Shown here piece after piece: positions 11,162 to 30,241 of a DNA stretch of 64,000 bases (position 1 is the first letter of the stretch; each line of letters starts with the position of its first letter). A program made the position numbers and the translations under genes. This DNA is from Chloroflexota bacterium. Its GTDB lineage: Bacteria; Chloroflexota; Anaerolineae; Aggregatilineales; Phototrophicaceae. The stretch is taken from NCBI GenBank assembly GCA_009840575.1, contig VXNO01000017.1, positions 7,497 through 71,496 on the forward strand, in the 5' to 3' direction. Below the pieces are notes generated by a model that saw nothing but the letters and a program-made list of their open reading frames with translations, did not search any database and was not told where the DNA came from.

Positions 11162-12952
11162 TCAGGCAAGTTGCACAATTGCCCACATTTCTAGCTCGGG
11201 CACAGTGATGATGGTCGCTTGTGAATCAGCCCGGCAGGCGATTTTGCGCGCCTCAACGCCCGGCGCATATAGCCAGGCATTGGTAAAAGTTCTATTCAGC
11301 AAGCGGCTTTCGAGGCGCAAGTCAAAGTCGCGCGCAGGTTTGTACTTGTCTGTATCAAAGTCATAATTGGCATTCAGCAAGTGGCAGACGATAGTCGCGC
11401 CTTTATCGCCGGGTTTGTAGCGTGGCAGGGCAGAAATGTTGACAGCGCCAGTGATTTCAATGTCTGTATCGAGCTGCGAAAGCAAGTCTTCCGGCTCAGA
11501 GTAGGTCAGCAATTTCTCGCCAGCGCTGCGCAATTTTTCTTCCTGCCGCGCATTCAAGCCGGTCTGTTTGAAGCGCACAATAGCGCGATAAGCCGTCAGA
11601 TCCGCATTCAGTAAGCGATCGGCGACCCAGTCATCACCCGCTACCAACAAGCGGAAGGGGATGTTGGCACGGCTGAGCGACAGACAGGCTTCAACCAATT
11701 GCGTCTGCGGGGCGCTGCGATTTTGGCCGCCGAGATGCTCCTGGTTTAAGCGCTCGGACAGATATTGACGCACGGCATTGTTGCTGAAAACAAGCGCGAC
11801 GGGAGCAAGCGCTTCGTAATCATCGAATAGCTGGGGATACTCGCGCACAAAATGGTAGAGTTCGGTGTAATCATGGGTATCGGCATAATACCAGCGGTCG
11901 GCTTCACCCGGGCTGCGCAAAGTCCACATTTTGTCGGGCACCATGAAGACATGTCCGTGCGCGTAGGCTTGGGCGATCCACAAACAGATGTGGCCCGGGC
12001 GCGGCTGCAAACGATAGGGTTCGAAGGCGCTTGGCACACCGGTAATCGCGATCAACTTATCCAATGCGTCAGCCAGCTTGAATGTATAGATCGGCTCGCT
12101 CGGCAAAATCTCGTCTTCCGGCGGCTTGTATTGCATCTCAGTGGTGTAAAAGTCGTGCGCATCAACGGCATACATGAATTCCGCCCAGAAAAAAGGGGAG
12201 TTAGAGCTCATCGGCACATGCTCGCCGTATGTCTGCGCAACGCGTTTGAACGCTCGAAATAATGTGTTGACTTCGCGCCATTGAAAGTCAAAATAGGCAT
12301 TCGCCAAGGGCAGAGTCGGTGGAAAAGCCAGGATCTCAGCACGATAACGTTGGTCGGTGATGCCGCGCATACGCAAAAACTCGCCATAATCGAAGCAGTC
12401 GATATCTTGTATGCCCGCCAACTGCAACTGTTCCGGTGACATCGTCTCGCGCAGGAATTCTCGGAAACGGACCATGCAGTGCTGGCAGAAGCAGCCGCCA
12501 TAACGCGCATTCAACGTCCCGATGGTCGGGATAGCTGAGTCGATCATGAGCCAGTCTGTGCCAGCCGACATCACCCGTTGCAGTTGATAAAACAGATAAT
12601 GACGATAGCCTGGCGCATTGGTGCAATAGTGATAGGCTGGGTGCCCTTTATAAGTGTGCGTCCACCAGGTTATTGCCGGACGGTTGTCCAGGTCACGCAC
12701 GGTCGACTCCATAAAATTGGAATCAAAGTCAATCATACCCATCCAGTCAGCGTCCAGCTCAACACGGCCTTGAAACTTGACGCCGCAACGATGCGCTTCG
12801 TCGACATCACGCATCATCTCTTCGTCAGGTGGCAAACCGCGCCGATCCGGTTCTGGCAGGAAACCCCAGCCTAACCCGGTCGCGCGATAGCGGCGATAGA
12901 CTTCCATGCTACAGGGGCGCGTTATCAATACATCCGAACGTTTCAAGGTCAT
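11162..12952 (-). CDS. GH42-like (clan GH-A) glycoside hydrolase candidate
   Basis: Start taken at MTLKRS.. (12952), 14 nt after the sulfatase stop. The Cys cluster ..GGCFCQHCMVRFREFLRE.. resembles the Zn-binding C-x-C-x2-C + FREWL motif of GH42 beta-galactosidases. The C-terminal part is consistent with a trimerisation-like domain. No signal peptide. Confidence 0.45.
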   Translation of the reverse strand: MTLKRSDVLITRPCSMEVYRRYRATGLGWGFLPEPDRRGLPPDEEMMRDVDEAHRCGVKFQGRVELDADWMGMIDFDSNFMESTVRDLDNRPAITWWTHTYKGHPAYHYCTNAPGYRHYLFYQLQRVMSAGTDWLMIDSAIPTIGTLNARYGGCFCQHCMVRFREFLRETMSPEQLQLAGIQDIDCFDYGEFLRMRGITDQRYRAEILAFPPTLPLANAYFDFQWREVNTLFRAFKRVAQTYGEHVPMSSNSPFFWAEFMYAVDAHDFYTTEMQYKPPEDEILPSEPIYTFKLADALDKLIAITGVPSAFEPYRLQPRPGHICLWIAQAYAHGHVFMVPDKMWTLRSPGEADRWYYADTHDYTELYHFVREYPQLFDDYEALAPVALVFSNNAVRQYLSERLNQEHLGGQNRSAPQTQLVEACLSLSRANIPFRLLVAGDDWVADRLLNADLTAYRAIVRFKQTGLNARQEEKLRSAGEKLLTYSEPEDLLSQLDTDIEITGAVNISALPRYKPGDKGATIVCHLLNANYDFDTDKYKPARDFDLRLESRLLNRTFTNAWLYAPGVEARKIACRADSQATIITVPELEMWAIVQLA

Positions 12953-12965
12953 CGTTGGCGCTCCA

Positions 12966-14612
12966 TTATTTGCCCAGCTTCTCCGCATAAACATAATAGG
13001 TGCCGCGTTCACGACCGCCAGCCGCATCAGTCAGCCAAGTCTGCAGCTTGACTTCGCCAATCGGCAAATCCAGCCGAAAGGCCACTGCCGTATCGCCAAC
13101 CAAAACAGGCTTTTCGATTGTCTTTTCGCCCACTTGCAGACGCGCGGTTGAGGCTTGCATGGCGCGATCCGCTTCGCGTGGATGCGCCCGCAATTCGATG
13201 CGATAGCTGCCCGCCCGCGAGATATCGACCAGCCACCAGCCATTAGAATCGTAGGCAGGGTCGTCTAGCGCAGCTTGCAGCCAAGGGACTCTGCCCGAGG
13301 TGGGATGCCAGTCACGCGCCGAAAGCAGCACGGGGTTTTCGTGCCGCGTGCCAACCGGGACCGCTATTGTGCTGGCGAACACGTTTTGCAGGCTTTGCCA
13401 CCAAGCTTCGTAGTCACTGCGCAGATCTGCGACGATCTGTGTATGCGCCGCCGCCACATCGCGCTGTTGCGCCGGGTCGCTGCCGATATCGGTTAATTCG
13501 CTGCCGTTGATCAGCCGCCATCTCTCGTTCAGCACAACGCAATGATGCCACTTCTGCGGCGTATCCGGCTGCAACTGTAGGACCAAGGACCGATGCGGCA
13601 AATTGCAATCCGCGCCGAGCAGCAGATTCTTCAGGCTGATGCCGTCAAAAGGCCTGTCGCTTTCTAAACCACACAGGTCAAGCAAGGTCGGCAGCACATC
13701 GATATGGGCCGTCGGCCCTGGCAATTTGCGCCCGGCTGGAATAGTTCCCTGCCAGCGCCAGAAGCAGTTGACACGATGTCCGCCTTCGTAGACTGAGCCT
13801 TTTATACCGCGCATGCCCGCGTTGTAACCGCTATTCGCCGCGGCGTCCCAGCCAGCTGCCGTGCCATGGTCGGAGGTAAAGAGGACAATTGTGTTTTCGT
13901 CCAGCTCCAGCGCATGCAGATGCTCCAGCAACCGTCCCATATTCTCGTCGAAGTTGGCGATCATGCCGTAGAAATTGGCGCGTTTTTCTGGCATCTCCAA
14001 TTCGCGGTAGGGCGCGGCATATCGCTGCGGCGCGATGAAAGGCGAGTGCATGGCATTGGTGGACAGGTAAACAAAGAAGGGCTGGTGGCTGTGGCGGGAG
14101 ATAAAGTCCTGCGCGGCCGCAAAGAAAACATCCGTGCAATAGCCGGCGCATTGCATGGGCGAGCCATCCCGAAAATAGACATCGTCAAAATAGTTGTTTC
14201 CCCAATAATCGGGCAGCTCGCCCACGCCGCCGCCACGATGGCAGAGCGTTTCGTCAAAGCCGCGATAGTGCGGAGCAAAAGGATAATTGTCGCCCAGGTG
14301 CCACTTGCCGAACATGCCAGTGCGATAGCCACTATTGGCGAAACACTCGGCCGCGGTCACAGCGTCTGGATGCAGCAGGTGCCGGCCTTGGATGACATGC
14401 CAGACACCGTTGCGCGCCGCGTATTGTCCCGTCAGCAGCGCAGCGCGCGATGGCGAACACAGCGGGTCGTGGTGATGATCGTCCAACTGGGCGCTTTGGC
14501 TGGCTAAGCGGTCGAGGTGGGGTGTATTGAGGTGGGGATTGCCGTGGCAGCCGATATCGCCGTAGCCTTGGTCATCGGTGATGACGAAGACGACATTGGG
14601 CGCTTTAGGCAT
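12966..14612 (-). CDS. S1-family sulfatase (formylglycine-dependent), no signal peptide
   Basis: ..VVFVITDDQGYGD.. and the formylglycine motif ..LCSPSRAALLTGQ.. The N-terminus MPKAPNVVFV.. starts directly at the catalytic domain. Confidence 0.9.
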   Translation of the reverse strand: MPKAPNVVFVITDDQGYGDIGCHGNPHLNTPHLDRLASQSAQLDDHHHDPLCSPSRAALLTGQYAARNGVWHVIQGRHLLHPDAVTAAECFANSGYRTGMFGKWHLGDNYPFAPHYRGFDETLCHRGGGVGELPDYWGNNYFDDVYFRDGSPMQCAGYCTDVFFAAAQDFISRHSHQPFFVYLSTNAMHSPFIAPQRYAAPYRELEMPEKRANFYGMIANFDENMGRLLEHLHALELDENTIVLFTSDHGTAAGWDAAANSGYNAGMRGIKGSVYEGGHRVNCFWRWQGTIPAGRKLPGPTAHIDVLPTLLDLCGLESDRPFDGISLKNLLLGADCNLPHRSLVLQLQPDTPQKWHHCVVLNERWRLINGSELTDIGSDPAQQRDVAAAHTQIVADLRSDYEAWWQSLQNVFASTIAVPVGTRHENPVLLSARDWHPTSGRVPWLQAALDDPAYDSNGWWLVDISRAGSYRIELRAHPREADRAMQASTARLQVGEKTIEKPVLVGDTAVAFRLDLPIGEVKLQTWLTDAAGGRERGTYYVYAEKLGK

Positions 14613-15732
14613 CGTGCCCGTCTTTGCCTGTGGGCAACCCTTCGCGTTCCCAGCGGATGATGAAATCCCAAGGCTCGTCTATTTGGCTCAGCCCCAGCGG
14701 GTCGCGCCCCTGCCAGGCCAGGTGGGCGCTGTAGGTCGTCACATGGCTCAGCCCCCAACTCAAGCCGGACAAAGGCTCGCTGTTGTCGCTGGCTGGCACC
14801 CGCAGCGCGCCAGTGGCTTGGGGCGGCGCGATGATGGTCGACATCGGCTGGAAGTTGATGCCGTCTTGCGCGAACTGGATGGTATTTTTCTCGGGACCGC
14901 AGCGAGTCAGCAGCGCGCCCACGCCGCCCGCGTACTCCCAGACCATGACCTCGTGCCCGCTGTTGGTGATGGGGTTGAAGGGCGACTTGATATACGGGCC
15001 CAGCGCGTCATCAGCGTGCGCCACCCCCCACTTGCTTTCCATATTGCTGTGGCCGATGCCCTCGCCCTTGAAATAGAGCCAATAACGCCCCTCGCGGAAG
15101 AGCAGCGCCGGGTCGTGCACGCGCAGGCTGTCGAAGCTGCCGATGACTGTCGCCGCTTCGGGATGCGCCCGCTCATCGACTTCGCCGGATGGGTCAGGCT
15201 CGACGACCGGCGCGGGGCTTTTTGTCCAGGGTCCATGCGGCGAATCCGCCCAGGCGATAGCGATTGATTCAGGCGTGCAGCGATACGAAGGCGCGGTCGT
15301 TACCTGATAGACAAGGTAATAGCGACCGTCATGCGCCAGCACATCGGGGGTGAAGACGCTGCGTTCGTCATAGCTGCCGGCGGGACCGCGCGTAACAGCG
15401 GGGCCCTGCTCTTGCCAGTTGTGCCCATCGCGAGAGGTGGCATACCAAACATCGCACAAATCCCAGGCGACGGCAGGGATAGTCTCGCTGGCATGATCAT
15501 GTCCAACCGGGACGCAAGGGTGCGCGCCGCGCGTATACCAGACGAAGTATGTGCCATCGACCTGGATGATGCAGCTGGGGTCGCGCCGCACGATACCGCC
15601 TTCATAGCCCAGCCCCGAAACCAACTGGTAGCGAAAGCGCGTGAACCAGGGATTGTGGCGGTCGGGCTGATACCGCGCTGTGGCTGCGCTGACTGGCATG
15701 GGCGCGCCTCCAGAAGAGGAAATGGGAGCCAA
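14605..15732 (-). CDS. GH117-like glycoside hydrolase (alpha-1,3-(3,6-anhydro)-L-galactosidase family)
   Basis: Motifs shared with characterised GH117 enzymes: RRDPS, YFVWYT, WDLCDVWYATSRDG, VFTPDVL, YYLVYQ, VHDP, WLYFKGE, NPITNSGHEV, GPEKNTIQFAQDGINF, WGLSH. Its stop overlaps the sulfatase start by 8 nt. Confidence 0.8.
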   Translation of the reverse strand: MAPISSSGGAPMPVSAATARYQPDRHNPWFTRFRYQLVSGLGYEGGIVRRDPSCIIQVDGTYFVWYTRGAHPCVPVGHDHASETIPAVAWDLCDVWYATSRDGHNWQEQGPAVTRGPAGSYDERSVFTPDVLAHDGRYYLVYQVTTAPSYRCTPESIAIAWADSPHGPWTKSPAPVVEPDPSGEVDERAHPEAATVIGSFDSLRVHDPALLFREGRYWLYFKGEGIGHSNMESKWGVAHADDALGPYIKSPFNPITNSGHEVMVWEYAGGVGALLTRCGPEKNTIQFAQDGINFQPMSTIIAPPQATGALRVPASDNSEPLSGLSWGLSHVTTYSAHLAWQGRDPLGLSQIDEPWDFIIRWEREGLPTGKDGHDA

Positions 15733-15773
15733 TCGTCAAGACCAGCTCCCGCTGCCAGGAAGGTCGAGGTCAG

Positions 15774-17786
15774 CTAGTTGCTACCGCCTTCGAAGTACCA
15801 TTGTTCGGGCAAGAACAAGACCCACTGGCGGTAAGTCCAGCTCCATTGTCCAGTCGTGTCATTGGGCGGGGTGTTCTTCAAGTTCTTCTTGAAGAGCAAG
15901 GGTTGTGGCGGTCGTTGGATTGTACCAATCTGATACAAACCGCCCATCGACATGTTATAGAACTCCTTGCCCAGCGCCAGCCATTCATCAGACCCATAGG
16001 CAGAATCGAGGAATGCCTCGCCGGTTGCCCACAAATCTTTAATCTCCTGCGGCGGCTCTTCGCCTGCTTCGCCATCGGATTGCATCCATTGACGCCACAA
16101 GTGTCCTGAAGCGCGCGCGCCCCAATGCGGACGCATATTCGCCAGACTATTGGCTACCTCGCCGATATCCAACATATCGGTGCCCCAGGCTGCCATATCC
16201 ACCCCGTTGCTATCGCGCAATTCACGATACAAGCCGATTTCAATGAGCTTGTATTGTGTCTTTACGCCGACTTCGTTCCAGTAATCGGCGATCAGCTCGC
16301 CGATCCTGCGCCATGAATCTTCGGGCACAGACACCTGGAAGTTGATAAATAGCGTTTCGCCATCGGGACGCAGTCGGAAACCATCGCTATCTCGCTGGTC
16401 CAAACCCATTTCATCCAGAAGCTGGTTCGCCAGGTCAGGGTCATATTGCGCGTAATGACCGGGCATCCAATCTTCATAGAAGAGCGAAGTGGGAACAGGC
16501 GCATTCTGCGAAGCATTGGCTAAGCCGAAGTAAATAAGCTCGTTGATCTCTTCGCGGTTGATCGCCACCGACATAGCCTGGCGGAAGCGCATATCCCAGA
16601 AGATATCGCGCAAGGGCAGGTTTTCGGTCGTGAAATTGAACATGATCGAATACTCATTGCCACGGCTGTATTCAGCAGTCGCCGTGCGGTATCCGCCAGC
16701 TTCTTCATTTTCACGGTAGGTGGGATAGCTCAACAACGTGCCCCAGCCGTAATGCGAGTACTCTCCAGCAAGCGCTTTGAGGTCTTGGATTTGCAGATCT
16801 TCCACCAGGATGCGACGCAAGGTATCCGTATAGGGCAGTTGGTTGCCGGCTGGATCCACTTTGAAGAAGTAGGGATTGCGCACATAATGCTTGTTGCCCA
16901 AGCTGTCTTCGCTTTCGAAGACGAAGGTGTTGAGGGTTGGCGCGTAGGCATCCGTCTCCGAGCCCAGGTTCCAGGTGAAGTTGTAGGGGCTCATCTTGGC
17001 GTTGAACATCTGCACCCAGCCCTCAAAGCCGTTTTCTTCAGCCAGCGCGTTGGCATCCGGGTTGTAATCGAGATGAAACTGCTTGAAGTAATGCGCCGGG
17101 CGGAAACCACGATTGCCGACCTCGCTGCCCAGCGCAATCATCAACGTGGGGCGAGCCTTGGCATAGGTATAGCGCACCGTAGTCGCATCGATAATCTCAA
17201 ACTGCGGCAACTCGCCATCAACAGCCCAGGGACCGCCAGGCGATGGCGTGATGTCGCTATTGCCCAAGATGTCTTCTATGTAGAAGCGGAAGTCTTCGGC
17301 AGTGAATGGTTCGCCATCTGACCAGCGATGACCTTCGCGCAGGTGAAAAGTGAAGACCGTTTGGTCTTCGGAAACTTCAAAGTCACGGGCGACGTTAGGG
17401 ATGATTGTGGCCAGGTCAGTATCGATAGTGAAGAGTTTCTGCAAGCGCATCTCCAGCACATCCCATCCGCAGCAGACGGGGTTGGTTGAAGGACCAGCCA
17501 GCTCGCCGCCATATTCGCCGATTTGTTCCAGCGGCTGGACGACGGCTGGCTGCGCGGGCAAGCGCTCTTCGACAGGCGGCAGCTCACCCGCGGCGACCAT
17601 CTCCGCCAGCATCGGCGCTTCGCCCCACATGTCGATGCTGTTGCCGGTGGCGGCGCTGTAGGCATCCAGGTCGGCATACTGGAATGGATAGACCAACTGC
17701 CCCTCGTGCATGGCTTGCCCAAAAACGGCAGCCGGCAGCAAGACCAATGCCAGGATCGTTAGCAGTACAAATTGATTTCGCTTCAT
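15774..17786 (-). CDS. Family-5 (Opp/Dpp-type) ABC substrate-binding protein, probable oligosaccharide binder
   Basis: Start at MKRNQFVLLTILALVLLPAAVFG (ATG 17786), preceded by GAGGAG. It has a signal peptide. The large SBP_bac_5-like body and locus context argue for a sugar rather than peptide ligand. Confidence 0.8.
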   Translation of the reverse strand: MKRNQFVLLTILALVLLPAAVFGQAMHEGQLVYPFQYADLDAYSAATGNSIDMWGEAPMLAEMVAAGELPPVEERLPAQPAVVQPLEQIGEYGGELAGPSTNPVCCGWDVLEMRLQKLFTIDTDLATIIPNVARDFEVSEDQTVFTFHLREGHRWSDGEPFTAEDFRFYIEDILGNSDITPSPGGPWAVDGELPQFEIIDATTVRYTYAKARPTLMIALGSEVGNRGFRPAHYFKQFHLDYNPDANALAEENGFEGWVQMFNAKMSPYNFTWNLGSETDAYAPTLNTFVFESEDSLGNKHYVRNPYFFKVDPAGNQLPYTDTLRRILVEDLQIQDLKALAGEYSHYGWGTLLSYPTYRENEEAGGYRTATAEYSRGNEYSIMFNFTTENLPLRDIFWDMRFRQAMSVAINREEINELIYFGLANASQNAPVPTSLFYEDWMPGHYAQYDPDLANQLLDEMGLDQRDSDGFRLRPDGETLFINFQVSVPEDSWRRIGELIADYWNEVGVKTQYKLIEIGLYRELRDSNGVDMAAWGTDMLDIGEVANSLANMRPHWGARASGHLWRQWMQSDGEAGEEPPQEIKDLWATGEAFLDSAYGSDEWLALGKEFYNMSMGGLYQIGTIQRPPQPLLFKKNLKNTPPNDTTGQWSWTYRQWVLFLPEQWYFEGGSN

Positions 17787-17847: not shown

Positions 17848-18975
17848 TTAGCCTCCTTTCACCTCGAACTCACGCAGTTTGTCCCACTCAAATTGCACAC
17901 CGTGGCCTGGCTCATCGCCGGCGCGCATGATGCCGTCTTTCAATTGCGGCGGATTCTTGATGAAGCGCTCCAAGCCGAAGCTGTGCACTTCCAGGAGCGA
18001 CGGATTGGGGATAGCCGCCAACAACTGCAAGTGCAGCTCATGCACGCCGTGCGAGGTTACGGGCAGGTTGTGCGCATAAGCCAGCCGCGCCACGCGCAGC
18101 CAGTTGGTGATGCCGCCAATGTTGGATACATCCGGCTCGGCAAAGGCGATGCCGGCCTCCAGCGTGTGGCGGAATTCGTAGATGGTGCGCAGGTTTTCAC
18201 CCGCGGCAATGGGCAAGCCGCCTTCGCGGGCGATGCGCCTCAAGCCGGCATAATCGTCGGGGATGGTCGGCTCTTCCAGCCAGTAGACATCGTAGTCGCG
18301 GAAGCTGCGTGCCGCGCGGATGGCTTGCTCGGTCGTCCAGCGCATATTGGCATCGACCATCAGCGGCAGGTCGGGACCCAAAAAGTCGCGCACTGCCCGC
18401 AGCCGGGCGATATCTTCGGACAGCTTGTCGCGCCCCACTTTGATTTTGATGGCGCGGAAGCCGGCTGCGAGGTTGCAGCGCATCTGCTCAACGAGTTCGT
18501 CTGGCCCCAGCTGCAAATCAATGCCGCCGGCATAAGCGCGCGCCTGCCCGGAGTAACCGCCCAGCAGCTTCCACAGCGGCTGCCCCTGGCTGCGCGCCAG
18601 CAGATCCCACAAGGCGGTATCGACCGCCGACATGGCGAAAGCGACCAGCCCGCCCCGTCCGACATAATGCAGGCAGCGCCACATGCGCTCCCAGATCTGC
18701 TCGATACGGCTGGCGTCCGCGCCCAGCAGCAGCGTCTTGATGTCGCGCTGGATCAAGGAGCGGATGGCCGCCCCGCCCCGCCCAATCGTATAGGTATAGC
18801 CGATGCCGCTGCGCCCGCAGTCGCTCTCCAGGCACACAGCCACGACTTCAAACTCAGTATGCACGCCATGGGTGGCATCGGTCATGGGATGACTGAGCGG
18901 CAATACAAAGTGCCGCGTTTCGATGCCAGCAATACGCAGTGGCGCGTTCATCGAAGAATTTGCAGAAGCTAACAT
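17848..18975 (-). CDS. Enolase-superfamily (mandelate racemase/muconate lactonising) enzyme, candidate 3,6-anhydrogalactonate cycloisomerase
   Basis: ..FRAIKIKVGRD.. (KxK), ..LMVDANMRW.., ..YWLEEP.., ..AAGENL.. metal-ligand motifs. Start taken at MLASANSS.. (18975), alternative at 18951. The ORF-track start at 19092 would run through the promoter region. Confidence 0.8.
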   Translation of the reverse strand: MLASANSSMNAPLRIAGIETRHFVLPLSHPMTDATHGVHTEFEVVAVCLESDCGRSGIGYTYTIGRGGAAIRSLIQRDIKTLLLGADASRIEQIWERMWRCLHYVGRGGLVAFAMSAVDTALWDLLARSQGQPLWKLLGGYSGQARAYAGGIDLQLGPDELVEQMRCNLAAGFRAIKIKVGRDKLSEDIARLRAVRDFLGPDLPLMVDANMRWTTEQAIRAARSFRDYDVYWLEEPTIPDDYAGLRRIAREGGLPIAAGENLRTIYEFRHTLEAGIAFAEPDVSNIGGITNWLRVARLAYAHNLPVTSHGVHELHLQLLAAIPNPSLLEVHSFGLERFIKNPPQLKDGIMRAGDEPGHGVQFEWDKLREFEVKGG

Positions 18976-18981: not shown

Positions 18982-19049
18982 GTGATAATCGATTACTGAC
19001 AAATTGTCAAGTGTACATTGTTGACAATCTGCAATCTCGCCGCTACAAT
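18982..19049. promoter_or_regulatory. Back-to-back divergent consensus promoters with operator palindromes
   Basis: Plus strand: TTGACA (19021-19026), 17 nt, TACAAT (19044-19049). Minus strand: TTGACA (complement of 19005-19010), 17 nt, TATCAC (complement of 18982-18987). Palindromes TGACAA-A-TTGTCA (18997-19009) and ATTGTTGACAAT (19017-19028) overlap the two -35 boxes. Confidence 0.65.
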
Positions 19050-19105: not shown

Positions 19106-20101
19106 ATGAGGAATTATGTGCTGCAGCGGCTGGTCTATATGGTCTTTTTGCTGTGGCTGGTGACAGTCGTCACATTCATCGTGATTCAGTTGCCGCCTGG
19201 AGACTACCTCTCGACGTATATCAGCCGCCTGGAACAAGCCGGGGAAGACCTCACTGACGAAGAAGTCGCTGCGCTGCGTGAACAATATGGGCTGAATCTG
19301 CCCGTGTATGCGCGCTACTTCAAGTGGTTTGGACAAGTGCTTCAAGGCAATCTCGGCTTTTCCTACGACTGGGAGAAGCCAGTGCGAGATTTGATTGGAG
19401 AACGGCTCGCGCTGACGTTTTCGATTGCTATATTGTCAGCTATCTTCACTTATGCGGTCGCCATCCCTATAGGCATTTATTCCGCGGTGCATCAGTATTC
19501 CATCGGCGATTACATATTTTCTTTCATCGGCTTCATCGGCATGTCCATCCCCAATTTTATGCTGGCGCTGATCTTGCTGTATGTCGCTTGGTCGGAATAT
19601 GGACAAAATTTAACCGGTCTGTTCTCGCAGGAGTTTCAAGGCGCGCCTTGGAGTTGGGAGAAGCTGATTGATATGGCCAAGCACCTGCCCATTCCTATCA
19701 TTGTGATTGGCACGGGCGGGACAGCCGGCTTAATCCGCGTGATGCGCGGCACGCTTTTGGACGAGCTGAACAAGCAGTATGTCATCACCGCGCGCAGCAA
19801 AGGCTTGGGCGAAGTCAAGCTGCTCTTCAAATATCCCGTGCGCGTGGCGCTCAACCCCATCATCAGCAGCCTGGCTTGGCTCTTCCCCAGCTTGATTTCC
19901 GGCGGCACCATCACCGCCTATGTGCTGGGCTTGCCCACGGCGGGCCCCATGCTGTTGCGCTCTCTGTTGACGCAAGACACTTTTTTGACCGCGAGTTTGC
20001 TGATGTTCGTCACGATTTTGACTGTCATCGGCACGACGGTTTCCGATATTTTGCTGGTCGTGGTTGACCCGCGCATCCGCATGGAACGCGCGGCAAGCTA
20101 G
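19106..20101 (+). CDS. Opp/Dpp-type ABC transporter permease (DppB-like)
   Basis: 331 aa with N-terminus MRNYVLQRLVYMVFLLWLVTVVTFIVIQLPPGDY typical of DppB/OppB. EAA-like region ..YVITARSKGL.. Confidence 0.9.
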   Translation: MRNYVLQRLVYMVFLLWLVTVVTFIVIQLPPGDYLSTYISRLEQAGEDLTDEEVAALREQYGLNLPVYARYFKWFGQVLQGNLGFSYDWEKPVRDLIGERLALTFSIAILSAIFTYAVAIPIGIYSAVHQYSIGDYIFSFIGFIGMSIPNFMLALILLYVAWSEYGQNLTGLFSQEFQGAPWSWEKLIDMAKHLPIPIIVIGTGGTAGLIRVMRGTLLDELNKQYVITARSKGLGEVKLLFKYPVRVALNPIISSLAWLFPSLISGGTITAYVLGLPTAGPMLLRSLLTQDTFLTASLLMFVTILTVIGTTVSDILLVVVDPRIRMERAAS

Positions 20102-22972: not shown

Positions 22973-23739
22973 CTGTACTCGATTCTTTTCGGCTGGACGG
23001 CAAGACGGCGCTGGTGACCGGGGCGCGGCGCGGCATTGGCTTCGCCATGGCCAGCGCTTTAGCAGAAGCCGGCGCGGATATCATCGCCGTTAGCGCCAGC
23101 CTGGAAAACAGCGGCAGCGCGATAGAAGCGGCTGTCTCCGCGCAGGGGCGGCGCTTCGCTGGCTATCGCTGTGATTTTTCGAGGCGGGCTGAACTGAAAG
23201 ATTTCATCACGCAAGTAAGCAGCGAACACCCGGTCATCGATATTTTGGTCAACAATGCGGGGGCGGTCCTGCGCGAGCCGGCTACCTCGCATAGCGATGC
23301 CTATTGGGATCGCATCATCGAAATCAACCTGAACGCGCAGTTCGTTCTCAGCCGTGAGCTTGGTGCCCGCATGTTAGAGCGCGGCAGTGGCAAGATCATC
23401 TTCACCGCTTCGCTGCTGACATTTCAAGGTGGCATCACAGTGCCTGGTTATGCAGCCAGCAAAGGCGGCATCGGACAACTGACCAAAGCGCTGGCGAATG
23501 AATGGGCGGGCGGCGGCGTGCAGGTCAATGCCATCGCGCCCGGCTATGTGCGCACCGATGTAACCGAAGCCCTGCAAAATAACCCCGACCGGTACCGCGC
23601 CATCCTGGAGCGCATCCCGGCGGGGCGCTGGGGGCATATCGACGATTTCAAGGGCCCGGTCGTCTTCCTGGCTTCGGCGGCGTCGGATTATGTCAACGGC
23701 GAAATCCTGGTGGTCGACGGCGGCTGGATGGGTCGCTGA
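22969..23739 (+). CDS. Short-chain dehydrogenase/reductase, KduD-like
   Basis: ATGA overlap with the preceding gene. TGARRGIG cofactor motif, YAASKGG (YxxxK) catalytic motif, overall KduD-like N-terminus ..LDGKTALVTGA.. Confidence 0.85.
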   Translation: MTVLDSFRLDGKTALVTGARRGIGFAMASALAEAGADIIAVSASLENSGSAIEAAVSAQGRRFAGYRCDFSRRAELKDFITQVSSEHPVIDILVNNAGAVLREPATSHSDAYWDRIIEINLNAQFVLSRELGARMLERGSGKIIFTASLLTFQGGITVPGYAASKGGIGQLTKALANEWAGGGVQVNAIAPGYVRTDVTEALQNNPDRYRAILERIPAGRWGHIDDFKGPVVFLASAASDYVNGEILVVDGGWMGR

Positions 23740-23744
23740 GCAAC

Positions 23745-24980: not shown

Positions 24981-25058
24981 CTTGTCTCCTTTTCCTGTGA
25001 AACCGCATGGGCAGCGCAATTGCCACAGATAGCATTTGCCTGTCTCAGCGCTGGCACT

Positions 25059-25080
25059 GTCAATTGTAGACAATCGACAA
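25059..25080. promoter_or_regulatory. Operator-like 22-mer GTCAATTGTAGACAATCGACAA upstream of the GH117 gene
   Basis: Contains ATTGTAGACAAT (25063-25074). It differs at one position from the 22-mer at 26094-26115. Confidence 0.6.
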
Positions 25081-25127
25081 GCGCGGGGCAAACAAAGAGC
25101 AAAAATGGGGAAGCTTGGCGCGCTGCC

Positions 25128-25390
25128 TCAGCCCTTGAGGCCGGAGTAGCTGATGCCTTCGACGAAGTAGCGCTGGAAGAACAAAAAGATAAGCGCCATT
25201 GGCAAGGTTGTGATGACCGAGCCAGCCAGCACCAAATCGTACTGGATATCCTGCCCGCTGCCGCGCAGCACCGTCAAGTCCAGCGGCAGGTTATACAAGT
25301 CGGTGTTGCCGCCCAGGATAATCAGCGCGTCCATGAAGTTATTCCAATTGCCCTGGAAGCTAAATATTGTCAGTGCCGTCAGCGAGGCTT
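25128..25390 (-). pseudogene. 3' remnant of a CUT1-type (MalG-like) sugar ABC permease gene
   Basis: Own translation upstream of the 68-aa ORF gives ..[27 protein letters not shown]...[32 protein letters not shown], the conserved C-terminal quarter of MalG-type permeases. Similarity is lost near 25390 and an in-frame stop lies at about 25416. No N-terminal part is present. Confidence 0.7.
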
Positions 25391-25415
25391 GCTCGCATCT
25401 TGTGTACTCTGGCTT

Positions 25416-25982
25416 TCAGCGTAGAGAGCCCAGCTTGAACAGTCGAGAGGAAGCGCTGATCAATGAAGTTCCAATACAGCAAGCCGCAATGGCGAACAAG
25501 CCGATGATGCTGCCTGGAACGATTCCTGCGCTAGTGGATAGCAGGAATGCAATCAGCAGTCCGATGAGCGTCGCCACTTTCATTTTGAGCGTGCCAAAGA
25601 ATCCGACTCCGAAATAGAGGATTGTGACGGGAATCATGATGTGCAGATTGCCGACGTAATCAAACACCGCTCCAAGAACATAGCTGCCGATTCCAAGAGC
25701 GCCGCCGACAAATCTAGCTGGCCCTGAGTTCTCTATACCGTCTTTGATGTTGCCCAAGCGCCGCGAAAGGTCGTTTTGCCAGTTGTCGAATCCTCTTCGC
25801 ATCTTGTCAAAGACGGTTCGCTGCGCGGCGATTTCAGCTTGCACATGCTGATAACGCGCGTACCCGGCGACAGAGACCGCAACCACAATGAAGACGAAGA
25901 CTGCAAGAGAAACATAGGGGCGGCGGCTGATTTTGGCCTTGGCAGAGCGGTATCTCGCCTTGATGAAACTTTGCGCCTTCAT
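25416..25982 (-). CDS. Hypothetical polytopic membrane protein (possible recent insertion)
   Basis: Start at MKAQSFIK.. (25982), preceded by GGAG. 188 aa with several TM segments. It uses visibly more A/T-ending codons than its neighbours (by eye, not computed). No recognised family. Confidence 0.5.
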   Translation of the reverse strand: MKAQSFIKARYRSAKAKISRRPYVSLAVFVFIVVAVSVAGYARYQHVQAEIAAQRTVFDKMRRGFDNWQNDLSRRLGNIKDGIENSGPARFVGGALGIGSYVLGAVFDYVGNLHIMIPVTILYFGVGFFGTLKMKVATLIGLLIAFLLSTSAGIVPGSIIGLFAIAACCIGTSLISASSRLFKLGSLR

Positions 25983-26093
25983 GAAAGCTCCTTCTAGTAT
26001 GCAGTGGACTTCGCAACTAGGCTGAACATGAGCGGGATGCGCTGGAACAAGCGCCAGGCCCGAATGATATGCGCATAACTTGACACTGGTAAA

Positions 26094-26115
26094 GTCAATT
26101 ATAGACAATCGACAA
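26094..26115. promoter_or_regulatory. Operator-like 22-mer GTCAATTATAGACAATCGACAA upstream of the GMC oxidoreductase/GH117-fusion operon
   Basis: 21 of 22 positions match 25059-25080. A TTGACA box lies at 26080-26085 just upstream. Confidence 0.6.
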
Positions 26116-26129
26116 ATCTGGGTCAAGCA

Positions 26130-27764
26130 ATGGCGCAAAATGCCGGCTATGCTTGGTGGCTGTCGGCTGGAGGAGAGCACACGGTGATACGCGAGGCGGA
26201 CTACATCATCATCGGCGCTGGCTCGGCTGGGGCAGCGGTTGCGGCGCGCCTAAGCGAAGACCCGCGCGCGACTGTGCTGCTGTTGGAAGCTGGCGGACCA
26301 GACAGCGACCCGACCATCCATGTGCCGGCGCGTTTTTCCGAACTTTTCCACAGCGATATCGACTGGGATTATGAAACTGTGCCTCAGCCGGGCTTGAATG
26401 GGCGGCGGGAATATGTACCGCGCGGAAAAGTGTATGGCGGCACCAGCTCCATGAACGCCATGGTTTATCAGCGCGGGCATCCTTCTGATTATGATGGCTG
26501 GGCGGAGGCGGGCAACCAAGGCTGGGCATACCAGGATCTGCTGCCTTGGTTCAAGAAGATGCAGCATCAGGAGCGCGGTGAATCGTGGCATCACGGCAGC
26601 GGCGGGCCAATCAACGTGGCTGACCTGCAAGACCCGAATCCATTGAGTCGGGCTTTTGTGGCTGGCGCGCTAGAGCTAGGATATGCGCCGCGCGAAGATT
26701 TCAACGCGGGACAGCAAGAAGGTTTTGGGCTATACCAGGTTACGCAGAAGCGCGGACAGCGGCACAGCAGCGCGGTCGGATACTTGCGACCAGCTTTGCA
26801 GCGCCCGAACTTCACCGCCCTGCCCTATGCTCATGCCACTCGCTTGTGTATTGAGGGCAAACGGTGCCAGGCGGTCGAGTTCTGGTGCCAGGGCGAGCGC
26901 AAAACAGCCTATGCCAGAAGGGAAGTCATCGTCTGTGGCGGCGCGATCAACTCGCCACAACTGCTGCTGCTTTCGGGCATAGGCGCGGCCGCGCAGCTTT
27001 CCAAGCACGGCATCCCAGTCGTAGTAGACCTACCTGGCGTTGGGCTGGGCTTGACCGATCATATGCAAGTGCCAGTCGCTTATCATTGCACTGCGCCAAT
27101 CAGCCTAGCCGGCAAAGACACCGCCGAGCAATTGCGGCTATATGAAGCAGGGCGCAGAGGCTTGCTGACATCAAACCTGGGCGAGGCGGGTGGATTTGTA
27201 CGGCTCGACTCGCGTTCACCAGCGCCCGAGCTGCAATATCATTTCGGGCCTGATTGGTTCATTCGGCACGGATTCGATCCGCCGCCGGGGCACGGCTTCA
27301 CTATTTTGGCTGGTTTGGTCGGCACAAAGAGCGCTGGCAAATTGGAGCTGGCATCGGCAGATCCCTTCGCTGCGCCCTTGATCGACTTTGCCTGCCTGAG
27401 CCACCCTGAGGATGTGCGCGTCCTGCTGGCGGGGGTCAAGTTGGCGCGGCGCATCGCCCAAAGCAGCGCATTTGATGCCTACCGCGGCGAAGAGTTCTTG
27501 CCCGGCGCGCAGCTAAGGGATGACGCGGAGTTGACCCGCTTCATCCGCAAGTTCGCCACCACGATCTATCATCCCGCCTGCAGCTGCAAGATGGGCAAAG
27601 ACCGACTGGCGGTGGTGGACGAACGACTTCGTCTACATGGAATTGAAGGACTGCGCGTGGCTGACGCTTCAATTATGCCGCGCATCGTCAACGCCAACAC
27701 CAATGCGCCCTGCATTATGATCGGCGAAAAAGCGGCGGACATGATCCGCGAGGACAATAGATAA
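26130..27764 (+). CDS. GMC-family FAD oxidoreductase (choline/glucose dehydrogenase-like)
   Basis: ..DYIIIGAGSAGAAVAARLSED.. FAD-binding fold, ..GGTSSMNAMVYQRG.. GMC signature, C-terminal ..YHPACSCKMG.. active-site His region. The true start may be slightly downstream. Confidence 0.9.
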   Translation: MAQNAGYAWWLSAGGEHTVIREADYIIIGAGSAGAAVAARLSEDPRATVLLLEAGGPDSDPTIHVPARFSELFHSDIDWDYETVPQPGLNGRREYVPRGKVYGGTSSMNAMVYQRGHPSDYDGWAEAGNQGWAYQDLLPWFKKMQHQERGESWHHGSGGPINVADLQDPNPLSRAFVAGALELGYAPREDFNAGQQEGFGLYQVTQKRGQRHSSAVGYLRPALQRPNFTALPYAHATRLCIEGKRCQAVEFWCQGERKTAYARREVIVCGGAINSPQLLLLSGIGAAAQLSKHGIPVVVDLPGVGLGLTDHMQVPVAYHCTAPISLAGKDTAEQLRLYEAGRRGLLTSNLGEAGGFVRLDSRSPAPELQYHFGPDWFIRHGFDPPPGHGFTILAGLVGTKSAGKLELASADPFAAPLIDFACLSHPEDVRVLLAGVKLARRIAQSSAFDAYRGEEFLPGAQLRDDAELTRFIRKFATTIYHPACSCKMGKDRLAVVDERLRLHGIEGLRVADASIMPRIVNANTNAPCIMIGEKAADMIREDNR

Positions 27765-30241
27765 TGACAGCCTCACAACACAAGCCGCGCCTGCCTGGCG
27801 AGCCAAGCGTGAATAAACCCAAGGATCGTCAGCTTAGCGCCGCAACGCGCCGTCTGTACGACAAGTGGGGACGGTATCAAGATTCCACCAGCGAGTTCTA
27901 TACGACATTCAAATACAGCCGCCTCACAGGAATCGGCAAGCAAGCCGGCATCACCCGCCGCGACCCGACCACTGTGCTTCGAATAGACGGCACCTATTTC
28001 GTCTGGTACACGCGCCGCCAAACAGAAAATGACCGCGACATCCGCAACAAGCCTCCTCATCAACAGCAGACCTGGCATACACCTGTCTACGATTGGGACC
28101 TGGCGGAGATATGGTACGCCACATCGCAAGATGGCTTTCATTGGCAAGAGCGCGGCGTGGCCATCAGGCGCGGACCGAAAGATGCTTACGATGGCCGTTC
28201 GGTCTTCACACCCGATGTCCTGATGACTAAGCAGGGCTACTATCTGTATTATCAAGCTGTCGATTATCCCTATTGCACGCGCACGCGCAACAGCATCGGC
28301 ATGTCATTCGCAAGCTCGCCGCATGGGCCTTGGCAGCGCGTCGAAAGACCAGTGTTGCGACCCGGCGCGGCAGGCGAATGGCTAAACGATGATGACTCGG
28401 ACGAAGTCATCCGCTATGGTGATTGGGACAGCCACAAAGTGCATGACCCTTTCATCCTGGCGCGGGATGGTCGCTACTGGCTATATTACAAAGGACAGCC
28501 CATGGGTTGGACGACCCGCTATTCTCGCGGCATCGGCTGGGGTGTCGCAATCGCCGACCAGCCCGATGGACCTTTCGTGAAATCGCCACTCAATCCCCTC
28601 ACCAACAGCGGGCATGAGACTTGTCTGTTCCCGTATGGCGAAGGCTTGTTAGCGATTTGCGGACACGATGGCCCCGAGAAAGACACTATCCAATATGCAG
28701 CTGATGGGCTGAACTTCGAAGTAGTTGCGCATGTCACGCTGCCCCCGCCAGCTGGAGGGCCTTTCGCGCCAGATTCCTATGCGGACACAGCTGATGGCAG
28801 CGGCATCACCTGGGGGCTCGCGCATATCGCCACTGAAGAGCTGAAGCGCGGCAACTCCTATCTCATTCGTTTTGATTGCAACTTGCGCCCTGGGCTCGAG
28901 CGACCCGGTTTTCGCGGCACGAATATCCGCTTCCCCGAATCAGTCTATTTTTCGCCGGATATCGCGCTGAACGAAGACAACAAACAACCTTTGCGCTATG
29001 CAAGCAAGCCAGAGCCGCCGCCGCGGGCCCCGCTACTTGAAACCCTGAGCCGGGCATCTCAACGCGTGTACAAGACTTTTGGGCAGTACAAAGACCAAGG
29101 CAGTGAGTTCTTCTCGGCATTTAAATATTCGTCAATCAGCGGACTGGGAAAAGAGCTGGGCTGCACGCGGCGCGACCCATCCAAGGTCATCCGCGTCGGC
29201 GAAAAGTATTTTGTCTGGTATACACGCCGCAAAACCGCACAGACCTGGCGCGGCACCCAGCAAGCCAGCAGTACGCGCCCAGCCTGGGCCTGGGACATGG
29301 CGGATATCTGGTACGCTGAATCACCAGATGGATTCCATTGGCGGGAATGCGGACCCGCTGTGCTTCGTGGCGCGCCGGGCAGCTTTGACGACCGCTCGGT
29401 ATTCACTCCCGATATCTTGATACATGGTGGCAAATTCTATCTATACTACCAAGTATCACAGGGTATATGGACTCAGCGGGCGCGCCACCTGATCGGCATG
29501 GCTTGGGCGGAATCCCCATATGGTCCCTGGACGAAGCTCGACCAGCCGGTATTGCAGCCCGGCCTGGCTGGCGAGATTGTTGGCGCGGATGATGATGCCG
29601 ATGCAATCGGCAGCTTCGGCGAATGGGACTCGCACAAATTGCATGATCCCTTTGTCTTGCGCTACCGCGGGCAGATTTGGCTGTATTACAAAGGTGTGCA
29701 ATACGGGCGGACATATCGTCATGATCTGGGCATCGGCTGGGGCGTGGCTATGGCGGATGACCCGCGAGGACCCTTTGTCAAGTCGTCTTTGAACCCGATC
29801 ACCAACAGTGGCCACGAGACCTTTCTCTATCCTTTCCGCAAAGGCATAGTCGCTATCACCAGCCACGAAGGCCCCGAGAAGAATACAGTCCAATACGCAA
29901 GCGATGGGCTAAACTTCCAAGTAGTCGGCAAAGTATCTGTGCCGCCCGTTGCGGCTGGCCCCTATGTGCCCGATGCTTTCACCGACAGCCAAGACGGACG
30001 CGGCATCAGTTGGGGCTTGTCACACATCCACCACGATGATGCAGGGCCGCTCGCGGATTCTTACTTGGTACGTTTCGACTGCAACCTCAGTCGAGACGAG
30101 CAGCGCGCCGACTTTTACCGCGCCTGGAATTACCGCTTTCCTGAATCAGCCTATTTCAGCCAGGGATTTGCGCTGACACCACAAATGAAAAGCGAAGCGC
30201 TGCAGCTCATGCAAGCGATAGACACAGATACGATTGTCTGA
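27764..30241 (+). CDS. Tandem GH117-GH117 fusion protein (two complete GH117-like domains)
   Basis: 825 aa; start overlaps the GMC stop (TAATG). Each half has the full motif set: RRDPT/RRDPS, YFVWYTRR, WD(L/M)A(E/D)IWYA, VFTPD(V/I)L, YYLYYQ, SHK(V/L)HDPF, WLYYKG, NP(L/I)TNSGHET, GPEK(D/N)T(I/V)QYA(A/S)DGLNF, WGL(A/S)HI, (L/V)(I/V)RFDCNL. The Pro-rich linker ..ASKPEPPPRAP.. lies at about 29000-29035. Confidence 0.85.
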   Translation: MTASQHKPRLPGEPSVNKPKDRQLSAATRRLYDKWGRYQDSTSEFYTTFKYSRLTGIGKQAGITRRDPTTVLRIDGTYFVWYTRRQTENDRDIRNKPPHQQQTWHTPVYDWDLAEIWYATSQDGFHWQERGVAIRRGPKDAYDGRSVFTPDVLMTKQGYYLYYQAVDYPYCTRTRNSIGMSFASSPHGPWQRVERPVLRPGAAGEWLNDDDSDEVIRYGDWDSHKVHDPFILARDGRYWLYYKGQPMGWTTRYSRGIGWGVAIADQPDGPFVKSPLNPLTNSGHETCLFPYGEGLLAICGHDGPEKDTIQYAADGLNFEVVAHVTLPPPAGGPFAPDSYADTADGSGITWGLAHIATEELKRGNSYLIRFDCNLRPGLERPGFRGTNIRFPESVYFSPDIALNEDNKQPLRYASKPEPPPRAPLLETLSRASQRVYKTFGQYKDQGSEFFSAFKYSSISGLGKELGCTRRDPSKVIRVGEKYFVWYTRRKTAQTWRGTQQASSTRPAWAWDMADIWYAESPDGFHWRECGPAVLRGAPGSFDDRSVFTPDILIHGGKFYLYYQVSQGIWTQRARHLIGMAWAESPYGPWTKLDQPVLQPGLAGEIVGADDDADAIGSFGEWDSHKLHDPFVLRYRGQIWLYYKGVQYGRTYRHDLGIGWGVAMADDPRGPFVKSSLNPITNSGHETFLYPFRKGIVAITSHEGPEKNTVQYASDGLNFQVVGKVSVPPVAAGPYVPDAFTDSQDGRGISWGLSHIHHDDAGPLADSYLVRFDCNLSRDEQRADFYRAWNYRFPESAYFSQGFALTPQMKSEALQLMQAIDTDTIV

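Follow-up and report, generated by a model that had tools for sequence, protein, structure and literature searches.

Gene content and extent of the locus

The 64,000-nucleotide stretch analysed here, referred to as the window (positions 7,497 to 71,496 of contig VXNO01000017.1, assembly GCA_009840575.1), carries a cluster of genes encoding glycoside hydrolases of family GH117, sugar-acid enzymes, a sulfatase and an oligopeptide-type ABC transporter. A preliminary description made from the sequence alone had placed this cluster at 11162-30241 and read it as an agar-type utilisation locus in a host outside the Bacteroidota and Proteobacteria. The host does belong elsewhere, to the Anaerolineae of the Chloroflexota (Aggregatilineales/Phototrophicaceae), and the gene content is unchanged: open reading frames (ORFs) and Pfam matches place the family-5 solute-binding protein (SBP), the Opp permeases, the enolase-superfamily enzyme, the zinc-dependent alcohol dehydrogenase (Zn-ADH), the KduD-like short-chain dehydrogenase/reductase (SDR), the GMC oxidoreductase, the GntR regulator and the S1 sulfatase where they had been described. 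However, the start of the locus moves from 11162 to about 8736, as the ATPases OppD and OppF, with the operator ahead of them, are part of the system, and the locus is given here as 8736-30241 of the window. The starts of the proteins of 596, 364, 670, 367 and 411 aa are likely those of database gene calls. The features, in window coordinates, are as follows.

8736-8747: putative GntR/FCD operator ATTGTCTACAAT, 33 nt upstream of oppD; exact match to ATTGTnnACAAT
8780-9802, plus strand: OppD-type ABC ATPase; PF00005 and PF08352 (oligo_HPY)
9795-10844, plus strand: OppF-type ABC ATPase, ATG at 9795, 8-nt overlap with the end of oppD; PF00005 and PF08352
11162-12952, minus strand: GH96-like (alpha-agarase-like) protein, 596 aa from Met26; match to PDB 9m0b
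12966-14612, minus strand: S1 formylglycine-type sulfatase, predicted cytoplasmic; PF00884 at 1.3e-58, CSPSR
14605-15699, minus strand: GH117, deep clade-A member, 364 aa; candidate alpha-1,3-(3,6-anhydro)-L-galactosidase
15774-17786, minus strand: family-5 SBP (SBP_bac_5) with N-terminal signal/anchor; PF00496 at 4.3e-55
17848-18951, minus strand: 3,6-anhydro-L-galactonate cycloisomerase (ACI) orthologue, enolase superfamily; PDB 2ovl, 5xd7
19017-19028: putative operator ATTGTTGACAAT in the divergent ACI/oppB promoter region; exact match
19106-20101, plus strand: OppB-type permease; PF00528 and PF19300
20114-21259, plus strand: OppC-type permease; PF00528 and PF12911
21314-21922, plus strand: GntR/FCD transcription regulator; PF00392 and PF07729
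21953-22972, plus strand: Zn-ADH, candidate 2-keto-3-deoxy-L-galactonate 5-dehydrogenase; PF08240 and PF00107
22969-23739, plus strand: KduD-like SDR, candidate 2,5-diketo-3-deoxy-L-galactonate 5-reductase; TIGR01832
23745-24980, minus strand: GH117, clade-B-related, 411 aa, predicted cytoplasmic
25063-25074: putative operator ATTGTAGACAAT upstream of the gene for the 411-aa GH117; exact match
25128-25982, minus strand: lineage-specific insertion with two small ORFs (68 aa; 188 aa with one hydrophobic segment)
26098-26109: second operator copy ATTATAGACAAT, one mismatch, 21 nt upstream of the GMC gene
26130-27764, plus strand: GMC (choline-dehydrogenase-like) FAD oxidoreductase; PF00732 and PF05199
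27764-30241, plus strand: fused two-domain GH117, 825 aa, predicted cytoplasmic; N domain ~1-405, C domain ~406-825

Candidate enzymes of anhydrogalactose catabolism

In the published catabolism of 3,6-anhydro-L-galactose (L-AHG), a dehydrogenase of the aldehyde dehydrogenase (ALDH) family oxidises the sugar to 3,6-anhydro-L-galactonate (AHGA), which a cycloisomerase converts to 2-keto-3-deoxy-L-galactonate (L-KDGal); a 5-dehydrogenase then yields 2,5-diketo-3-deoxy-L-galactonate (L-DDGal) and a further dehydrogenase 2-keto-3-deoxygluconate (KDG), the substrate of KDG kinase (PMC5943477, PMC11219438). The enolase-superfamily enzyme of the window matches 2ovl with 390 bits (6e-116) and 5xd7, a Vibrio 3,6-anhydro-alpha-L-galactonate cycloisomerase, with 380 bits (8.6e-113), while the next family reaches 198 bits (2.4e-57) and 5olc 135 bits (2e-38). 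We take 2ovl to be SCO3480 of the Streptomyces coelicolor agarase cluster, and 5olc is presumably the D-type enzyme DauB of Zobellia. The orthology of ACI is the strongest single indicator that L-AHG is the sugar metabolised.

The Zn-ADH and SDR genes overlap by 4 nt (ATGA), and their products are 51% and 70% identical, respectively, to those of the genes after ACI in the ALDH-ACI-ZnADH-SDR operon of Luteolibacter algae. With TIGR01832 (kduD), the SDR scores 302 bits (3.5e-90), under the cut-off of 339. The pair is thus a candidate for the two steps after the cycloisomerase.

Four GH117 domains of three kinds

Pfam has no GH117 model and gives the three GH117 genes partial, weak matches to GH43; GH117 identity was judged against solved structures. 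In this comparison, the four domains in three genes already recognised as GH117-like match GH117 structures at E-values of 1e-80 to 1e-114 and 270-390 bits, versus 1e-4 to 1e-6 and ~22-30 bits for GH43 structures, and a generic GH43-like identity is rejected. The 364-aa protein (E 2.5e-98) is closest to 3r4y (333 bits), 5ta7 (312), 4ak5 (305) and 3p2n (304), versus 229 for 4u6d and 193 for 4u6b. The 411-aa protein (E 1.6e-114) matches 4u6d best (387 bits) and 4u6b with 373 bits, versus 221-249 for structures of clade A. In the fused protein, the N domain gives an E-value of 6.9e-87 and the C-terminal half, searched alone, 2.1e-83, each domain scoring 270-296 bits with solved GH117 enzymes of every clade.

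An alignment using PDB sequences transcribed from alignments showed that RRDP, (F/W)DSxxxHDP and NSGHE are kept in all four domains, in register with 4ak5 (BpGH117), 3r4y and 4u6d. The catalytic residues of BpGH117, reportedly Asp90, Asp245, His302 and Glu303 (Hehemann et al. 2012), fall within the RRDP, HDP and NSGHE motifs. The motifs found agree with the list defined for GH117, which includes SxAxxR, part of a helix-turn-helix that mediates the dimerisation these enzymes need (PMC13118177). The four domains carry this N-terminal motif as SAATAR, SAATER, SAATRR and SRASQR.

The phylogenetic placement of the four domains, which had been proposed as a check, comes from a neighbour-joining reference tree of 24 sequences (100 bootstraps), three of which are partial PDB sequences taken from alignments; for Zg3597, Zg4663 and BuGH117B, which stand outside the tree, only bit scores were compared. 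One domain falls in clade A, one is related to clade B and two make up a separate clade. Within the characterised clade A, the 364-aa protein branches deepest (100% bootstrap); it is 51% identical to SdNABH, in keeping with its candidate role as an alpha-1,3-(3,6-anhydro)-L-galactosidase. The 411-aa protein is sister to clade B (Zg3615) together with two-domain proteins of the PVC group (Planctomycetota/Verrucomicrobiota) with 88% bootstrap. It is 48% identical to Zg3615 (4u6d) of Zobellia galactanivorans, and both have no clade-A loop and share a C-terminal 'RFDCDLS' extension. However, the window protein branches outside the Zg3615 group and is predicted to be cytoplasmic, whereas Zg3615 and Zg3597 (4u6b) of Zobellia are periplasmic or lipoproteins.

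The two halves of the fused GH117 group with orthologues from Chloroflexota and Spirochaetia (100% bootstrap). They are 53% identical to each other and, in the alignment, combine the clade-A loop with the clade-B C-terminal extension. Since GH117 enzymes must dimerise, the fused pair is most simply read as a covalent heterodimer, and it probably mimics the obligate GH117 dimer. Two-domain GH117 proteins also occur in Planctomycetota and Verrucomicrobiota (P0097, P0104, P0113, P0120); they stand apart from the Chloroflexota/Spirochaetia set, and each set has its own N and C subclades. As the PVC proteins form a separate clade, the tandem fusion probably arose at least twice. A 'tandem' in Luteolibacter was considered as an orthologue of the fused GH117 and rejected, since it consists of two separate clade-B-type genes with signal peptides.

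The GH96-like protein and the sulfatase

No Pfam or NCBIfam model matches the 596-aa protein, and every public copy of it is annotated as 'hypothetical protein'. It had been described as GH42-like, but the only GH42 match is weak (3tts, E 1.5e-3), while the alpha-agarase 9m0b is matched at 3.6e-35, with residues 44-621 of the query lying over 201-768 of the chain. Opposite Asp163 and Glu297 in this alignment are Asp323 and Glu458 of 9m0b, a pair 135 residues apart; this equals the spacing of D333 and E468 in the GH96 enzyme AgaB, defined by mutagenesis (PMC10740060), AgaB being compared by spacing only. The alignment is suggestive of Asp163/Glu297 as the catalytic pair. Homology to the GH96 alpha-agarases (9m0b; AgaB) covers the whole catalytic module, at an identity of ~25-30% by eye. 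In contrast to them, the window protein has neither a signal peptide nor a carbohydrate-binding module and would therefore see imported oligosaccharides only, rather than the extracellular polymer; its activity could be that of an alpha-agarase specific for oligosaccharides or of some other glycosidase. The GH96-like gene adjoins the fused GH117 gene in an Armatimonadia locus (L068) and lies near it in Lentisphaerae (L078).

The earlier statement that the window holds no endo-acting agarase is accurate for the GH16, GH50 and GH86 beta-agarases and for secreted enzymes, but it overlooked the GH96-like protein. As no secreted depolymerase is present in the window, the accompanying suggestion that the organism scavenges oligosaccharides made by others stands.

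In the sulfatase, the CSPSR sequence lies near residue 52 and corresponds to the C/S-x-P-x-R maturation motif, the catalytic domain beginning at residue 5. The nearest solved sulfatases are the exo-4S-kappa/iota-carrageenan S1 sulfatases 6prm and 6bia (172-187 bits), and others are labelled S1_16 and S1_19. In a Pirellulaceae metagenome-assembled genome (MAG; L064:8204-12451, also P0114-P0117), an S1 sulfatase is fused to a two-domain GH117 in one ORF of 1415-1421 aa, directly downstream of an ACI homologue. This fused sulfatase is 49% identical to that of the window, and the ORF is a gene-fusion link between desulfation and GH117 action.

The sulfatase relatives could suggest a locus for carrageenan, with D-AHG in place of L-AHG, all the more as the D-AHG pathway also includes an enolase-superfamily cycloisomerase (PMC5943477). 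However, the enolase enzyme of the window shares 380-390 bits with L-AHGA cycloisomerases versus 135 with 5olc, and the Zn-ADH/KduD pair belongs to the L-pathway, the D-pathway using a kinase and an aldolase (PMC5943477). Moreover, D-AHG is released by GH127 and GH129 enzymes, not GH117 (PMC5943477), and neither family was seen in the window. A carrageenan locus is thus so improbable, given the cycloisomerase similarity and the enzyme families, that we regard it as ruled out.

Transport and cellular location

In a hydropathy scan of the first 45 residues, the only proteins with a signal-like hydrophobic stretch were the SBP, the permease OppB and the product of a small membrane ORF. The hydrolases, the sulfatase and the oxidoreductases have no signal-like N-terminus, which bears out the earlier remark that the enzymes are without signal peptides; the same scan does find leaders on the GH117 homologues of Luteolibacter. 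Pfam scans of the window revealed no TonB-dependent receptor or SusD, and the locus encodes an ABC importer instead of a Bacteroidota-type SusC/SusD system.

The SBP is nearest in the PDB to 5ipw, a putative oligopeptide binder, and to SPH1118 (7ver), and more distantly to 6epy, whose PDB entry names an alpha-galactoside-binding protein; scores with classical dipeptide binders are much lower. We take SPH1118 to be a pectin-oligosaccharide binder of Sphingomonas sp. A1. These relatives, together with the shared operator and the synteny described below, support import of sugar over import of peptides. Copies of OppD that are 70-82% identical lie inside the related loci L057, L059, L061, L071-L073 and L083.

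A shared putative operator in four promoter regions

The regulator combines a GntR winged helix with an FCD domain, and the promoter palindromes are of the FadR-subfamily type, reportedly tnGTnnnACna (Rigali et al. 2002). The 12-bp palindrome ATTGTnnACAAT occurs in all four promoter regions of the locus as three exact copies and one with a single mismatch. It was first spotted by eye in the ACI/oppB intergenic region (ATTGTTGACAAT) and then tested as a pattern: allowing one mismatch, six matches were found in 64 kb versus 0.94 expected, and no shuffle reached six. With arms of only 5 nt, the palindrome was missed by a repeat search of the intergenic regions, which gave no inverted repeat of use.

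The exact site recurs in 47 of 49 ACI-oppB and in 44 of 46 GH117(411)-GMC intergenic regions of related loci. It takes the same position upstream of oppD in L073, and sites are likewise found in promoter regions of L086 and L067; the GntR gene itself is conserved in the syntenic loci. As a phylogenetic footprint of a putative GntR/FCD operator, these sites indicate co-regulation of all four transcription units, oppDF among them. In the window, a 1.15-kb insertion splits the divergent GH117/GMC promoter region, which is otherwise ~125 bp long (spacing in L019), leaving one operator copy on each side. The two small ORFs of this insertion, called as genes on the identical contigs as well, have no homologue in related loci and no meaningful Pfam match.

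In the cultured verrucomicrobium Luteolibacter algae, ATTGTnnACAAT lies ~60 nt upstream of the GntR gene of the L-AHG operon (L074:2435-2446), and so the regulator-operator pair appears to be conserved across phyla.

Conservation in Anaerolineae and beyond

Related loci were retrieved by scanning a genome collection with an alignment of the fused GH117 and then searched by tblastn with all window proteins. The core, ACI-OppB-OppC-GntR-ZnADH-SDR-GH117(411)-GMC-fused GH117, is syntenic in ~50 Anaerolineae species at 70-95% identity. The second arm, comprising OppDF, the GH96-like protein, the sulfatase, the clade-A GH117 and the SBP, was seen in L071-L073. One of these loci (L073:7995-12235, Aggregatilineales OY760098.2) carries, ahead of its clade-A GH117, a further GH117 domain or gene as well as another copy of SBP_bac_5; both are absent from the window.

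In Spirochaetia and Pirellulaceae, the fused GH117 co-occurs with ACI. Together with the arrangements in Pirellulaceae, Armatimonadia and Lentisphaerae mentioned above, these independent associations in other phyla indicate that ACI, the fused GH117, the sulfatase and the GH96-like protein serve one function.

Judged by Pfam labels, which name weak GH43 hydrolases and an oligopeptide-type transporter, the locus could be a chance neighbourhood in which a peptide Opp system and unrelated sugar-acid genes lie beside generic GH43-like hydrolases. However, the hydrolases match GH117 structures at E-values far below those for GH43, the closest solved relatives of the SBP include a sugar binder, the gene order is kept over ~50 species, and every promoter region, including that of oppDF, shares a conserved operator. 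Of all the explanations weighed here, chance is the least probable, and the synteny and the operator pattern refute it.

Some Anaerolineae loci without ACI nearby (L006:5814-7758, L085:11475-13345) encode a GFO/IDH/MocA oxidoreductase and an AP_endonuc_2 (xylose-isomerase-like) protein; this pair adjoins the GH117/GMC genes in L006 and an ALDH gene in L085. It may represent an alternative oxidative route for an anhydro sugar.

Proposed pathway and points against it

It is likely that window 8736-30241 forms a single GntR-controlled regulon for scavenging and catabolising small, partly sulfated, L-AHG-containing oligosaccharides of agar type. Import by an Opp-type system followed by desulfation and hydrolysis in the cytoplasm had been suggested before, and the ACI orthology, the Zn-ADH/SDR pair, the SBP relatives and the shared operator all support it.

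In such a pathway, a secreted or anchored family-5 SBP and an OppBCDF-type ABC importer would bring the oligosaccharides into the cytoplasm. There, the S1 sulfatase, assigned by homology, would strip off sulfate, the four GH117 sites would release alpha-1,3-linked L-AHG from the non-reducing ends, perhaps along with related alpha-L residues, and the GH96-like enzyme may cleave further linkages. Oxidation of L-AHG to AHGA could be hypothesised to depend on the GMC oxidoreductase or on an enzyme encoded elsewhere. The ACI orthologue, recognised by orthology and synteny, would convert AHGA to L-KDGal, and the Zn-ADH and the KduD-like SDR would lead on to KDG for Entner-Doudoroff-type metabolism, the chemistry of both steps being modelled on published pathways. 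KDG kinase and 2-keto-3-deoxy-6-phosphogluconate (KDPG) aldolase are presumably encoded elsewhere. Finally, the GntR/FCD regulator would bind ATTGTnnACAAT at the sites found in the four promoter regions, and its release may be triggered by a sugar acid of the pathway.

Several points weigh against this pathway. GH117 is reported to be polyspecific, and three of the four domains in the window lie outside the characterised clade A. Among solved sulfatases, carrageenan galactose-4-sulfatases rather than a porphyran sulfatase are closest to that of the window. No ALDH-type L-AHG dehydrogenase was found by tblastn, with the Luteolibacter ALDH as query, in the 64-kb window or in the main-clade loci, and Pfam scans revealed no KDG kinase or KDPG aldolase among the window ORFs; a formylglycine-generating enzyme for the sulfatase is likewise absent from the window. 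Besides GH16, GH50 and GH86, the window has no evident beta-galactosidase (GH2/GH35/GH42), which leaves the full breakdown of the Gal-beta-1,4-AHG bond unexplained; in the predicted pathway, this bond must be covered by the GH96-like protein or by a gene elsewhere. Moreover, sponges and corals, the hosts to which many genome names point, are not known to contain agar, and the source of the substrate is an assumption.

The missing ALDH draws attention to the GMC oxidoreductase. Its gene stands directly upstream of that for the fused GH117 in 56 loci and precedes it in every Anaerolineae locus, and in the window its stop codon overlaps the next start (TAATG), i.e., the two are translationally coupled. 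The protein scores 597 bits with PRK02106 (cut-off 605), and its nearest structures are choline dehydrogenase 9lq0 (413 bits) and the chloramphenicol-inactivating oxidoreductase 8b7s (395 bits), followed by alcohol oxidases. Choline dehydrogenases and oxidases and the chloramphenicol oxidase take an alcohol through the aldehyde to the acid; oxidation of the aldehyde hydrate of L-AHG is thus chemically reasonable. As an indirect way of finding a displaced ALDH in complete genomes, the top 120 relatives of the L067 ALDH (56-100% identical to it) were screened for clusters whose longest contig matches a complete Phototrophicaceae chromosome in length; there was none, and the gene could still lie elsewhere. 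On the other side, both a GMC and an ALDH are encoded in L067, and in Spirochaetia and Pirellulaceae loci neither gene lies within 10 kb. A GMC acting in place of the ALDH as the L-AHG-oxidising enzyme is therefore a tentative proposal that we consider doubtful. Taken further, it could be speculated that in an apparently sponge- and coral-associated Anaerolineae clade the GMC took over from the NAD(P)+-dependent ALDH by oxidising the sugar's aldehyde in its hydrated form, much as its relatives handle betaine aldehyde, that the two covalently joined halves of the fused GH117 act as a heterodimer and differ in their specificity for decorated agar fragments, and that the regulon serves as an uptake route for red-algal dissolved organic matter on reefs; as a whole, this scenario is possible but again rather doubtful.

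The same machinery could also act on another substrate, namely a porphyran-type or other sulfated galactan, or an undescribed host or microbial glycan in which alpha-L-galactose, L-AHG or their methylated forms occur. In that case, alpha-L-galactosidase or similar activity would be expected of the fused and clade-B-related GH117 enzymes, and the GMC would oxidise L-galactose or another sugar rather than L-AHG. A 2026 preprint describes GH117 as polyspecific, with alpha-L-galactosidase activity on desulfated oligo-porphyran, weak alpha-L-fucosidase and beta-D-galactofuranosidase activities, in addition to alpha-L-anhydrogalactosidase activity in a distant clade. The position of three domains outside clade A fits such a substrate, as do the conserved sulfatase, even fused to a two-domain GH117 in Pirellulaceae, and the conservation of the locus in dozens of MAGs with names pointing to sponge or coral hosts. 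In addition, L067 has an ALDH beside ACI and a GMC beside the fused GH117, suggesting a role of its own for the GMC. However, the ACI orthologue is kept with the fused GH117 across four phyla, which argues for L-AHG as the product, and a clade-A-like GH117 lies in the same operon as the SBP. Furthermore, anhydro-L-galactose has so far been reported in agars only (2026 preprint). We judge a different substrate to be unlikely for the locus as a whole, but the earlier caution that the true substrate may differ remains valid given the polyspecificity of GH117, especially for the fused and clade-B-related domains. Oligosaccharides of agar type remain the more likely substrate.

Host and genomic setting

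Genes for ArgRS, dCTP deaminase and GyrA flank the locus, which is thus chromosomal. Exact copies of the 825-aa fused GH117 are found on contigs of the MAGs GCA_026705115.1 and GCA_026705065.1 and in several metagenome assemblies; NCBI lists the protein under 'Chloroflexi bacterium', and the closest GTDB species representatives in the genome-collection scan are titled Anaerolineae, Aggregatilineales or Phototrophicaceae. Isolate names such as SB0661, COS, APA, Plut and ENGE20 look like sponge or coral metagenome bins, an assumption from the names alone. Read from such MAG names, the host bacterium is probably a sponge or coral symbiont.

Upstream, apparently without relation to the agar locus, an 854-aa protein (window 959-3523) has an MGH1-like (mannosylglycerate hydrolase-type) glycoside hydrolase domain and is followed by an ABC exporter and a methyltransferase. 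Downstream, a long run of plus-strand genes (31902-61744) encodes large membrane proteins with PMT/PMT_2, DUF2142 and DUF2298 domains, one ORF of 1968 aa combining PMT_2 and DUF2298, as well as a GT4 glycosyltransferase, two pairs of ABC exporter genes and an ECF sigma factor. The AT skew of this run is strongly negative (-0.12 to -0.23 beyond 50 kb). By appearance, it looks like a cell-envelope glycosylation cluster.

Comparison with known agar systems

Well-described cases of agar breakdown and L-AHG catabolism come from Bacteroidota, Gammaproteobacteria and a few Actinobacteria and Firmicutes. Our literature search found nothing linking GH117 to sponges or Chloroflexota, or agar use to sponge Anaerolineae. 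The locus described here would represent a complete, co-regulated import-and-catabolism version in Chloroflexota, present in ~50 species-level genomes, many of whose MAG names suggest sponge or coral hosts. If the proposed pathway is true, it provides a defined set of genes with which to ask whether Chloroflexota living with animals use dissolved polysaccharide fragments of red algae as food. It also supplies candidates for further study, namely the fused GH117 clade, the cytoplasmic GH96-like enzyme and a possible flavin-dependent substitute for the AHG dehydrogenase, while the pair of GntR and ATTGTnnACAAT may be used to predict regulon members in other genomes, including those of Verrucomicrobiota.

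The operon of Luteolibacter algae KCTC 22040 (L074) consists of GntR, ALDH, ACI, Zn-ADH, SDR, a RhaT-like transporter, an aldose epimerase and three GH117 genes. Common to it and the window are GntR/FCD (46% identical), ACI (48%), the Zn-ADH, the SDR, GH117 enzymes of clade A and clade-B type, and ATTGTnnACAAT. However, Luteolibacter has the canonical ALDH and no GMC, whereas the window has a GMC and no ALDH. Likewise, its GH117 enzymes are encoded by separate genes and carry signal peptides (periplasmic), while those of the window have no leaders and include the fused protein, and its transporter is of the monosaccharide type rather than the Opp type.

Closer to the host, the Anaerolineae loci L086, L067 and L083 share the OppBCDF/SBP5, GntR, ACI, Zn-ADH, SDR and GH117 parts and the operator with the window, but have between oppB and ACI an ALDH gene that is absent from it. 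In the 21 kb read of L086, two GH2 genes and a GH29 gene are present, and there is no GMC, fused GH117, sulfatase or GH96-like gene.

The agarolytic clusters of Vibrio sp. EJY3, Pseudoalteromonas atlantica T6c, Paraglaciecola hydrolytica S66 and Streptomyces coelicolor combine GH117 with an AHG dehydrogenase, an AHGA cycloisomerase, an L-KDGal 5-dehydrogenase and a reductase. The window shares with them the GH117 exo-enzyme and the orthologous cycloisomerase (52-55%-class similarity), followed by the Zn-ADH and KduD-like SDR, and its predicted intracellular processing of oligosaccharides resembles published schemes. Unlike these clusters, it lacks an ALDH-type AHG dehydrogenase, GH16/50/86 beta-agarases and a GH2 beta-galactosidase, and instead of SusCD/TonB or CUT1 sugar transporters it encodes an Opp-type importer with a family-5 SBP. 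Its additions are the GMC, the sulfatase, the GH96-like protein and three GH117 domains outside clade A, all in a host of the Chloroflexota. What would be new relative to known pathways is thus the host phylum, the type of transporter, the location of all hydrolases and the enzyme complement, including the missing ALDH and beta-galactosidase. Most likely, the locus extends the known pathway for L-AHG and agar oligosaccharides to a new phylum, the Chloroflexota, with a rearranged enzyme set.

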